A stretch of 64,000 nucleotides of DNA from a virus (IMGVR_UViG_3300008267_000003:1-64000), one strand, 5' to 3'; shown: positions 5,037-6,979, counted from the stretch's first letter. A program made the numbers and translations. Notes: generated by a model from the sequence alone, not told the origin.

Positions 5037-5996
5037 ATGGCACACTTAGTTGAAACTATGGCGTACGCAGGCGAAGTTCCTTGGCACGGTCTTGGTAAAC
5101 CTGTCCCAGCCGACCTTTCCCCCGCTCAAATGCTGGATGCTGCGGGCTTGAACTGGTCTGTTGACAAGATTCCAGCCTATGCTGATATCATGGGTAAGCA
5201 AGTTTACACCGGTAAAGACGCTCTGGTGCGCTCTACTGACGGTAAAATCCTGGATGTCGTGTCGCAAGACTGGAATCCTCTGCAGAATGAAGAGGCTTTT
5301 GAGTTCTTTAACGACTTTGTATGCTCGGGTGACATGGAGATGCACACGGCTGGATCGCTGAAAAACGGTCAAATTGTGTGGGCTCTCGCTAAAGTGAAGG
5401 AGAGTTTTAATGTTTTCAACGGTGATCAGGTGGATTCATATCTACTTTTTACTCTCCCTCACAAGTTCGGTCAATCTATTGATGTTCGCTTCACTCCAAT
5501 ACGTGTGGTCTGCAACAATACTCTTACCCTTTCACTTAGTTCTAAGTCGGATAATATGGTAAAAGTGTCTCACCGCCGTGCTTTTGACGGTGACCAGGTG
5601 AAGCAGACGCTCGGTATTGCATCTGAGAAGCTTGCAAAGTACAAGGAAATGGCTAAGTTCCTGGGTTCTAAGAAGTATAAGCAGGAATCTGTGGTCGAAT
5701 ACTTCAACCGTATCTTCCCTGTCAATGCTTATGGCCGTTCTAAGAACGAGGAAACCGCTATCAAGAAGGAGTTGTCGAAGTCCGCAACGCTGGCTCTCGA
5801 GGCTCTACACGAGCAACCTGGTGCTAAGTTCGCTGAGGGCTCCTGGTGGCAGGCGTTTAACGCTGTTACCTTCCTGACTGACCACGTTGTTGGTCGTACA
5901 CAAGAGGGTCGTCTGACATCTGCTTGGTACGGTCCTAACAAAACACTCAAAGTTAAAGCTCTTGAGACCGCTGTTGAGATGGCTGAAGTAGCGTAA
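5037..5996 (+). CDS. DUF932 family phage/plasmid protein
   Basis: MAY.GE.PWHGLG, LQN.EAF.FF, TAGSLKNG..VW.LA, TPIRVVCNNTL, W.AFNAVT motifs. Confidence 0.85.
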   Translation: MAHLVETMAYAGEVPWHGLGKPVPADLSPAQMLDAAGLNWSVDKIPAYADIMGKQVYTGKDALVRSTDGKILDVVSQDWNPLQNEEAFEFFNDFVCSGDMEMHTAGSLKNGQIVWALAKVKESFNVFNGDQVDSYLLFTLPHKFGQSIDVRFTPIRVVCNNTLTLSLSSKSDNMVKVSHRRAFDGDQVKQTLGIASEKLAKYKEMAKFLGSKKYKQESVVEYFNRIFPVNAYGRSKNEETAIKKELSKSATLALEALHEQPGAKFAEGSWWQAFNAVTFLTDHVVGRTQEGRLTSAWYGPNKTLKVKALETAVEMAEVA

Positions 5997-6003
5997 ACGG
6001 TAA

Positions 6004-6073
6004 AACTGGGTAATAATCAGTCGTGTTTAATGATTTTACCCAGTTGATATCTGTGATCACTCTAATATATAAT
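6004..6073 (+). promoter_or_regulatory. Inverted repeat plus sigma70 promoter upstream of pqqA/tmRNA
   Basis: aactgggtaa...ttacccagtt inverted repeat overlapping TTGATA(6044)-N18-TATAAT(6068-6073). Confidence 0.6.
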
Positions 6074-6115
6074 GTCTGATGTGCGCGTTGCACATTATTT
6101 AACTAGGAGAATGAA

Positions 6116-6190
6116 ATGGCTTGGACTACACCTTCAGCACAAGATATGCGTTTTGGTTTTGAAATCACCATGTATATTGCAAATCGTTAA
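6116..6190 (+). CDS. pqqA: Pyrroloquinoline quinone precursor peptide PqqA
   Basis: AGGAGA SD at 6105-6110; MAWTTPSAQDMRFGFEITMYIANR* with W-x-x-P leader, R-x-G-F-E and the E-x3-Y core. Confidence 0.95.
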   Translation: MAWTTPSAQDMRFGFEITMYIANR

Positions 6191-6204
6191 TTTGTAGTAA
6201 AGAA

Positions 6205-6493
6205 TTGTTGTAATCCCTTCAAAGTGAAGGCATTCTGGACGAGGGTTCGATTCCCTCCATCTCCACCAGAAGTACATAGTTGTCCTAGATGAAAGAAACC
6301 TCTTAGGGCTCTAGCGGGGATTGTGTACTTCTGATGGGGATGACCTGGTTTCGACAGGGTGAGATAGCAGAGACGGCAACACAGTAGGCGATGACTGTAA
6401 ATCAAGCAAAATATGTATCCGCAAACGACAGCGAGTACGCTCTAGCAGCTTAAGCTCTAGATGGGGTTGGTCACCTTATTACCCAACAACCAG
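6205..6493 (+). ncRNA. ssrA: Circularly permuted two-piece tmRNA
   Basis: Acceptor piece first: T-arm GAGGG-TTCGATT-CCCTC 6241-6257, CATCTCC-A-CCA ending 6268. Intervening hairpin 6269-6335. Coding piece starts GGGGATGACCTGGTTTCGAC at 6336, giving G3.U70; tag ANDSEYALAA* at 6421-6453. Outer ends approximate. Confidence 0.93.
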
Positions 6494-6520
6494 TAGGCAG
6501 CTTCGGCTGCCTATTTTTTT
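6494..6520 (+). terminator. Rho-independent terminator
   Basis: taggcagc-TTCG-gctgccta followed by T7. Confidence 0.9.
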
Positions 6521-6541: not shown

Positions 6542-6979
6542 ATGCAAGTTAAAGGAACTAAAACTGAATTGTGTTTGAAAGAAGCGTTTGCTGGTGAGTC
6601 AAAAGCGAATCGTCGTTATTTGTACTTCGCAAACATGGCTGATATTGCTGGTGCAACAGACGTGGCTAATATCTTCCGTCACACGGCAGAAGGTGAAACC
6701 GGCCACGCTCATGGACATATGGAGTATCTTGTTGATGGTGGATCTGGTGATCCTGAAACTGGTCTTCCAGCAACTAACATTATTGAGGCACTAGAAAGCG
6801 CTATCAGTGGTGAGACCCATGAATACACTGATATGTACCCGGGTATGGCTAAGACAGCTCGTGATGAAGGGTTTGACGAGATTGCTGACTGGTTTGAGAC
6901 ACTTGCAAAAGCAGAACGTAGCCATGCAGGTAAATTCAAAAGAACATTGGATGCTTACAAAGCTGAACAGGGTCTGTAA
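6542..6979 (+). CDS. Rubrerythrin (short form, no rubredoxin domain)
   Basis: [44 protein letters not shown] di-iron ExxH motifs. Confidence 0.92.

Follow-up and report, generated by a model that had tools for sequence, protein, structure and literature searches.

Two-piece tmRNA genes located behind early promoters, and organized in operons with protein-coding genes, have been described in phages, namely in Melnitz and in the pelagimyophages (PMC9004378). The occurrence of pqqA as an auxiliary metabolic gene in phages is known from the Lake Baikal viral population VP_266 (Coutinho et al. 2020, PMC7678222), and the co-transcription of a message with a tRNA is exemplified by the secG-leuU unit of E. 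coli, in which the mRNA is released by RNase P cleavage at the tRNA 5' end (PMC2241853). With respect to the topology of the molecule, one-piece tmRNA continues into its pseudoknots at the point that corresponds to the acceptor-piece 5' end of the two-piece form (PMC3985003). Phages with two-piece tmRNA, phages with pqqA and messages co-transcribed with a tRNA are thus all known, and it is their combination at the locus reported here that is new. A literature search for a link between pqqA and tmRNA in phages found none, and tmRNA has 0 occurrences in the paper devoted to VP_266 (PMC7678222).

The locus belongs to an uncultured freshwater phage, represented in IMG/VR by a complete 162-kb genome with direct terminal repeats. 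The whole stretch of DNA that was analysed, the window, corresponds to the first 64 kb of this genome. Between the genes encoding a DUF932 protein and a rubrerythrin occur two tiny genes, pqqA and then a permuted ssrA, and the region is organized as follows:

5037-5996: DUF932 gene, the upstream flank of the pqqA and tmRNA genes
6029-6043, + strand: A/T-rich, UP-element-like AATGATTTTACCCAG (exact match), directly upstream of the -35 box
6044-6073, + strand: pqqA promoter TTGATA-N18-TATAAT of the sigma-70 type (phage early type), 11/12 match
6079-6095, + strand: predicted 5'-terminal stem-loop of the pqqA transcript, 6 bp with loop 6085-6089 (MFE folds)
6105-6109, + strand: Shine-Dalgarno sequence AGGAG of pqqA, 6 nt before the ATG and conserved in relatives
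6116-6190, + strand: pqqA, a PQQ precursor peptide of 24 codons (Pfam PF08042, TIGR02107)
6191-6203, + strand: AU-rich linker, predicted single-stranded (MFE fold), candidate RNase E-type site
about 6204-6268, + strand: tmRNA acceptor piece (Rfam alignments, ARAGORN, cofold)
6269-6335, + strand: intervening segment of 67 nt, removed on maturation, the ends of which pair (6269-6276 with 6324-6331)
6336-about 6491, + strand: tmRNA coding piece (ARAGORN, Rfam)
6492-6520, + strand: intrinsic terminator, a 10-bp stem (hairpin 6492-6515) followed by a T-run
6542-6979: rubrerythrin gene, the downstream flank of the pqqA and tmRNA genes

A single permuted tmRNA with the tag ANDSEYALAA is recognized by ARAGORN, and the Rfam models RF01850 (beta_tmRNA) and RF04321 (tmRNA_permuted) match with 169.2 bits (cut-off 84) and 147.7 bits (cut-off 47), respectively. 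The acceptor piece consists, in this order, of AU, the first helix strand (6206-6210), a hairpin, the T arm and the 3' acceptor strand (6258-6264), and ends in the discriminator A6265 followed by an encoded CCA (6266-6268). The 3' acceptor strand pairs with 6336-6342, the 5' acceptor strand GGGGAUG of the coding piece, to give an acceptor stem which forms in the cofold and which carries the elements of alanine identity, i.e., a G3:U70 pair (G6338 with U6262) together with the discriminator A6265. The gene order is permuted, with the CCA at 6266-6268 preceding GGGGAUG at 6336, and the RNase P site is predicted immediately before G6336. The intervening segment 6269-6335 contains no ORF, the tag reading frame at 6421-6453 encodes ANDSEYALAA and then stops, and the terminator at 6492-6520 coincides with the last hairpin of the beta_tmRNA model. 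Two minus-strand ORFs of 47 and 72 amino acids running across the tmRNA were dismissed as by-products of the RNA gene.

The phage resembles the OM43 phage Melnitz and the Pelagibacter phage Mosig (Buchholz et al. 2022, PMC9004378), which similarly associate a permuted ssrA with a large, aquatic, T4-like phage, with an early-type promoter and with protein genes of the same operon. The acceptor piece of Mosig was matched by blastn. In contrast to both of these phages, the tmRNA is of the beta (Burkholderiales) type according to the Rfam score, the presumably co-transcribed gene lies upstream of the acceptor piece instead of downstream of the coding piece, and no riboswitch was detected at the locus by the Rfam scan. 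Compared by blastn with cultured phages, only the acceptor piece found matches, at 82-88% identity, in Pseudomonas, Xanthomonas, Acinetobacter and Pelagibacter phages, and no pqqA-ssrA unit was found among them.

The pqqA gene is equally well defined, with profile scores of 39.4 bits for Pfam PF08042 (cut-off 21.1) and 38.4 bits for TIGR02107 (cut-off 20), and the peptide retains the conserved Glu-x3-Tyr pair in its core E16-I-T-M-Y20. Like the pqqA that stands at the head of the pqq operon in Burkholderiales, the peptide is of the type FGFEITMYIANR, and its nearest counterparts, identical at 21 of the 24 positions, occur in freshwater Burkholderiaceae, Oxalobacteraceae and Limnobacter genomes. 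To judge from this PqqA type, the host is probably a freshwater member of the Burkholderiales. Over the core codons 10-24, a comparison of 6 related loci, which were chosen by peptide motif in a way that somewhat biases the count, gave 64 synonymous versus 8 nonsynonymous differences, and on this codon evidence pqqA is under purifying selection.

The gene does not occur with pqqBCDE in one genome. No match to pqqE or, in a search run without a positive control, to pqqC was obtained in the complete 162-kb phage genome, so that the processing of PqqA would fall to host enzymes. Nor was a SmpB gene found in the phage, the tmRNA of which would then act with host SmpB. Since genes for PqqE, PqqC, a PQQ-repeat dehydrogenase and SmpB are all absent from the phage, both pqqA and ssrA must work with host proteins. 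We propose that pqqA is an auxiliary gene which supplies the host enzymes with the stoichiometrically consumed PQQ precursor. The phage thereby resembles VP_266, in which an orphan pqqA of a freshwater phage is presumed to feed the PQQ pathway of the host (PMC7678222), and differs from it in that no methanol dehydrogenase or other PQQ-repeat gene was found.

The promoter of pqqA is one of only 18 sites of that quality in the 162-kb genome, both strands included, and the same promoter architecture occurs upstream of pqqA in the related phage loci L003, L005, L016, L017 and L018. Variants of the element at 6029-6043 precede the pqqA promoters of L005, L017, L004, L179, L199 and L157; in the window this element, with up to 2 mismatches allowed, has 5 matches versus 1.5 expected. 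An element AATGATTTT(N5), with one exact copy in the window, often adjoins the -35 box of pqqA promoters. The sequence upstream of the -35 box could be a UP element or the site of a regulator. The transcript is predicted to start at about A6079, which is also where the stem-loop 6079-6095 begins. A hairpin of at least 5 bp occurs at the same place in 69 of the 89 unique phage pqqA loci among the matches listed (mean z -1.9), with stem sequences that are unrelated between lineages, so that it is the structure which is kept and not the sequence. Such predicted hairpins probably serve as mRNA stabilisers of the pqqA cassette. In the relatives, this cassette is self-contained and consists of a promoter, a 5' hairpin, a Shine-Dalgarno sequence, the ORF and its own terminator, the latter in L004 and L005. 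The lineage studied here is devoid of the cassette terminator and has the tmRNA gene in its place. A further predicted hairpin of 7 bp (6178-6184 with 6190-6196) holds the stop codon of pqqA in its loop, according to the MFE folds.

The same features bear on a reading that takes the pqqA ORF for a gene remnant in decay, or for an ORF arisen by chance, and the surrounding sequence for nothing other than the promoter and leader of the tmRNA; this reading appears barely credible. It could invoke the lack of pqqB-E in the phage and the behaviour of cmscan, which stretches the promoter-leader part of the beta_tmRNA model (model positions 1-49) over 6139-6187, but the Rfam alignment needs an 18-nt insertion there, the HMM scores reach almost twice the curated cut-offs and the core codon differences are overwhelmingly synonymous. 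Moreover, the ORF possesses its own Shine-Dalgarno sequence, promoter and 5' hairpin, and the same cassette recurs in at least 103 unique phage loci, most of which have no ssrA nearby.

A first-pass annotation of this DNA had suggested that pqqA and the tmRNA may be made as one transcript, the acceptor piece of which would then be an mRNA with an aminoacylatable CCA end, on the grounds that the clearest promoter lies upstream of pqqA, that the sole terminator follows the tmRNA and that about 15 nt separate the pqqA stop codon from the acceptor piece. These observations hold: the promoter at 6044-6073 matches at 11 of 12 positions and is conserved in relatives, the hairpin and T-run at 6492-6520 make up the only + strand terminator before 7422, and the gap between the stop codon and 6206, the first helix base of the tmRNA, amounts to 15 nt. 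No terminator is predicted between the promoter and the tmRNA gene, the linker leaving no room for one. By prediction, then, the locus displays a promoter before the ORF, no terminator between the two genes and a terminator after them, as expected of an mRNA-tRNA co-transcript. As the promoter is strong and conserved, and as neither an intervening terminator nor a credible internal start site is seen, we infer that read-through from pqqA into ssrA is very likely. In this respect, the unit resembles secG-leuU, in which a message and a downstream tRNA-type gene share promoter and terminator (Mohanty and Kushner 2007). In contrast to secG-leuU, RNase P is not predicted to cut at the junction, its site being located 130 nt further on, past the CCA. 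With its site shifted by the permutation to 6336, beyond the CCA, RNase P cannot split pqqA from the acceptor piece, and the cut that usually parts a message from its tRNA-like neighbour is lost. The geometry bears out the earlier point that, with the acceptor piece placed first by the permutation, an untrimmed RNA would encode PqqA and also carry the CCA end. The RNA left after the RNase P cut and 3' trimming would consist of pqqA plus the acceptor piece, unless some other nuclease cuts the linker, and any separation of the two rests on such a putative cleavage.

The linker offers a plausible place for it. Its distal part GTAAAGAAT (9 nt) is invariant in the alignment of the three junction variants found (see below), and GA/AUU at 6202-6206 resembles the sequence preferred by RNase E. 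The explanation that we favour, with a confidence somewhat better than even, is a single pqqA-ssrA transcription unit from which the pqqA part is cut off in the linker, the fusion of the two genes being accidental. The host RNA polymerase would start at the early-type promoter 6044-6073, at about A6079, pass through the 5' hairpin and pqqA, then through acceptor piece, spacer and coding piece, and terminate at 6492-6520, to give a primary transcript of about 440 nt. RNase P would then cut before G6336 and 3' trimming would expose CCA6268, while a host enzyme of the RNase E type would most likely cut within the linker (6191-6205) and so remove the pqqA part. The product would be the usual acceptor piece of about 63-65 nt, with the longer pqqA-acceptor RNA as an intermediate or minor species. 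The ssrA part would supply ribosome rescue and the pqqA part the PQQ precursor, and the fusion itself would have arisen by a rearrangement specific to this lineage, through which the tmRNA gene took the place of the terminator belonging to the cassette.

In favour of the preferred explanation, the acceptor piece normally has a short 5' end of defined position. The consensus of the Rfam beta_tmRNA model includes a promoter, TTGA...TAuAAU, which ends 7 nt before AU-GGUUGU, so that the bacterial acceptor piece begins as a primary transcript. Among the phage relatives, a start signal located 2-15 nt before the helix, defined as a sigma-70 match of at least 9/12 or as the T4-late-like ATAAATA (2.9% of random positions), was recognized in 29 of 68 unique ssrA loci (43%), most clearly in L170, L141, L088 and L020. 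At the locus under study, the best correctly placed match reaches only 6/12, in a position occupied by the 3' end of pqqA and the linker, and the beta-family pattern of a dedicated promoter with a start 1-3 nt before the first helix does not occur. The other 39 of the 68 relatives are likewise devoid of a recognisable ssrA promoter, and the absence noted here is accordingly weak evidence.

A separate origin of the two RNAs, with ssrA made mainly from its own start in the 3' end of pqqA or in the linker and read-through from the pqqA promoter a minor contribution, is rather unlikely. Such a start could use the internal promoter TTGCAA(6177)-N17-AAGAAT(6200), pointed out in the first-pass annotation as an alternative, or another phage promoter, e.g., of the late type. 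In its favour, L003 has a 10/12 promoter, TTGTCA-N17-TAGAAT, in exactly this register relative to the acceptor piece, a box AGAAT abutting TGTTG is conserved in many relatives, and T4-like phages use promoter classes that are invisible to a sigma-70 scan. The sister junctions may even contain a late promoter in their linker, judging from ATAAATA 12 nt before the acceptor piece in L002 and CTAAATA in L007. The internal promoter does exist as a sequence, but as an 8/12 match it stands at the chance level of one per 115 positions in the genome. Its TTGCAA corresponds to the conserved Ile-Ala-Asn codons of pqqA, and the spacing to AAGAAT changes to 20 nt in L002 and 23 nt in L007, so that the proposed promoter is not conserved. 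In addition, an RNA started 7 nt past AAGAAT would lose the first helix strand 6206-6210, which is paired in both Rfam models, and transcription from the strong promoter upstream meets nothing that would stop it. AAGAAT (6200-6205) was considered as a conserved -10 box and rejected, the -10 box in the relatives with the best promoters (L170, L141, L088 and L020, with L003 as the exception) ending 7-9 nt before AT-TGTTG; from this alignment, AGAAT is more likely a start-site context than a -10 box. Another candidate, the -10-like TATATT at 6173-6178, aligned by cmscan with the beta_tmRNA promoter, was also discarded: it consists of the Met-Tyr-Ile codons of pqqA, is devoid of a -35 box and needs an 18-nt insertion before the acceptor piece.

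The class of ssrA promoter differs among the relatives, with the late-like ATAAATA in L009, L130, L006, L024, L037, L041 and L063, and the sigma-70 early-like TTGACA-N17-TATAAT in L170, L141, L020 and L012. Depending on the phage lineage, the timing of tmRNA expression may thus differ, as far as promoter sequences indicate.

Once co-transcription is accepted, the fate of the linker decides between the preferred explanation and a bolder one, in which the pqqA message remains uncut and a stable acceptor RNA of about 190 nt (about 6079-6268) both encodes PqqA and, once paired with the coding piece, carries an alanine-accepting CCA. Its tRNA-like 3' end would stabilise the mRNA in place of a terminator hairpin, and/or the chimera would take part in trans-translation. 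We regard this as unlikely, albeit consistent with several features of the locus. Apart from the probable co-transcription, RNase P has a single site, located 130 nt downstream at 6336, and the standard separation of mRNA and tRNA is inapplicable; the acceptor piece replaces the 3' terminator hairpin of the relatives' pqqA; and the transcript also comprises the protective 5' hairpin. A 5' extension appears topologically tolerable, since it would occupy the site of the pseudoknot domain of one-piece tmRNA (PMC3985003), and linkers of 15, 18 and 21 nt, as found in the junction variants, would be long enough for a ribosome to terminate before it reaches the helix. In MFE cofolds with the coding piece, the acceptor stem and T arm are kept for the short as well as for the extended acceptor, but the first helix of the Rfam models is reproduced for neither, and MFE folds are weak evidence. 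Against an uncut message, the arrangement is not conserved and is limited to three sequence variants, most phage pqqA genes are monocistronic or located behind ssrA, acceptor pieces elsewhere have short 5' ends defined by promoters, and an AU-rich unpaired linker is a typical target of endonucleases. Of the one-transcript proposal in the first-pass annotation, co-transcription is therefore retained as an inferred property, but a functional chimera designed to end in CCA finds no support.

The strongest version of the uncut reading, in which the translated pqqA message stays attached to the acceptor strand as its 5' extension in this phage lineage and one RNA serves as three, forming part of the functional tmRNA, is distinctly improbable. 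If true, a phage mRNA would have an alanine-accepting CCA at its 3' terminus, would be shielded by the 5' hairpin at one end and by the tRNA-like domain at the other, and would either enter the trans-translation machinery or titrate it. Plant virus RNAs, e.g., those of TYMV and BMV, possess aminoacylatable 3' tRNA-like structures and are the known precedent for an mRNA with a chargeable CCA end. Each of these structures is folded from a single chain and is part of the genome of an RNA virus, whereas the tRNA-like domain considered here needs the coding piece as a second RNA in order to form, and the charging of the long form is hypothetical. Such an RNA would be the phage counterpart of the plant-virus tRNA-like 3' ends, possible only by circular permutation.

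The distribution of the arrangement among relatives argues for the accidental fusion that we prefer. Most of the 80 related phage loci anchored on DUF932 (of 467 matches) contain a permuted tmRNA downstream, at distances that range from some hundreds to some thousands of bases, and pqqA occurs directly before ssrA only in the locus described here, in L002 and in L007/L008, with gaps of 15, 18 and 21 nt, respectively. In L003, pqqA lies 158 nt before ssrA, with a conserved 46-codon ORF between them, and in L004 and L005 it precedes ssrA by 870 and 1038 nt and is directly followed by its own strong intrinsic terminator, whereas in L016-L018 pqqA is located behind ssrA. A second set, anchored on a degenerate DNA pattern for the pqqA core, comprises at least 120 phage loci, 103 of them unique. 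Among the matches listed, the unique loci are distributed as follows:

52 loci: both flanks of pqqA free of tmRNA for at least 600 nt
23 loci: flanks too short to judge the presence of a tmRNA
16 loci: ssrA directly upstream of pqqA
9 loci: ssrA further upstream of pqqA
2 loci: pqqA directly before ssrA
1 locus: tmRNA on the strand opposite to pqqA

With a junction-specific pattern applied to all of IMG/VR, 4 contigs were found beyond the phage itself, corresponding to 2 variants, or 3 with its own. The check on related phages proposed with the first-pass annotation thus shows an adjacency that is not conserved, occurring in this phage and in four contigs only. From these comparisons, the order pqqA-then-ssrA is rare and young. 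The neighbouring DUF932 proteins of the three junction variants are 87-95% identical, and a junction kept across this divergence is a fusion that is at least tolerated. In contrast to the phages, bacterial pqqA loci of the same type (120 loci, 2.6-8 kb fetched) contained a tmRNA gene in 0 cases; an adjacency inherited from the host was rejected on this ground, and according to these sequences the pqqA-ssrA linkage arose in phages and is phage-specific. Because the junction is rare and the cassette autonomous elsewhere, no selected coupling of PQQ supply to trans-translation is indicated, contrary to the suggestion that the fused RNA links peptide supply to ribosome rescue.

The block of small genes around ssrA is reshuffled among close relatives. 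The rubrerythrin gene follows ssrA in the present phage (6542-6979), and occurs between pqqA and ssrA in L004 (4297-4731), where it comes after pqqA and its terminator. The conserved 46-codon ORF between pqqA and ssrA is found at 1702-1842 in L003 and at 4728-4868 in L004; it has a hydrophobic C-terminal half, ends in GNYIR and overlaps the putative ssrA promoter in L003.

The novelty of the locus resides in the position of a translated gene, which immediately precedes the acceptor piece of a permuted tmRNA and which RNase P cannot separate from it. This raises a testable question, namely what defines the 5' end of the acceptor piece and whether a long 5' extension is tolerated. If the linkage reflects only shuffling, it is a neat but ordinary operon variant. 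In freshwater phages, pqqA and ssrA occur together in at least three architectures, none of which is present in the 120 bacterial loci examined: pqqA followed by ssrA, ssrA followed by a promoter and pqqA, and ssrA followed by pqqA without a promoter, inside a duplicated tmRNA tail. On this comparison, the phage tmRNA gene stands out as a docking place for small, highly expressed genes.

The last of these architectures is, to judge from its sequence, a second and opposite kind of ssrA-pqqA transcript fusion. In L161 (616-900), L170 (2554-2850) and L147 (223-520), the ATG of pqqA follows the final hairpin of the tmRNA coding piece at a distance of about 30 nt, and neither a promoter nor a T-run separates the tmRNA tail from the ATG. 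L100 (470-760) exhibits only a tail remnant upstream of pqqA and no whole tmRNA. The tail module (GGTTTCG-stem-TCCTCGTAACAGAAT-stem) is repeated after pqqA in L100, L161 and L170, with no clear second copy in L147.
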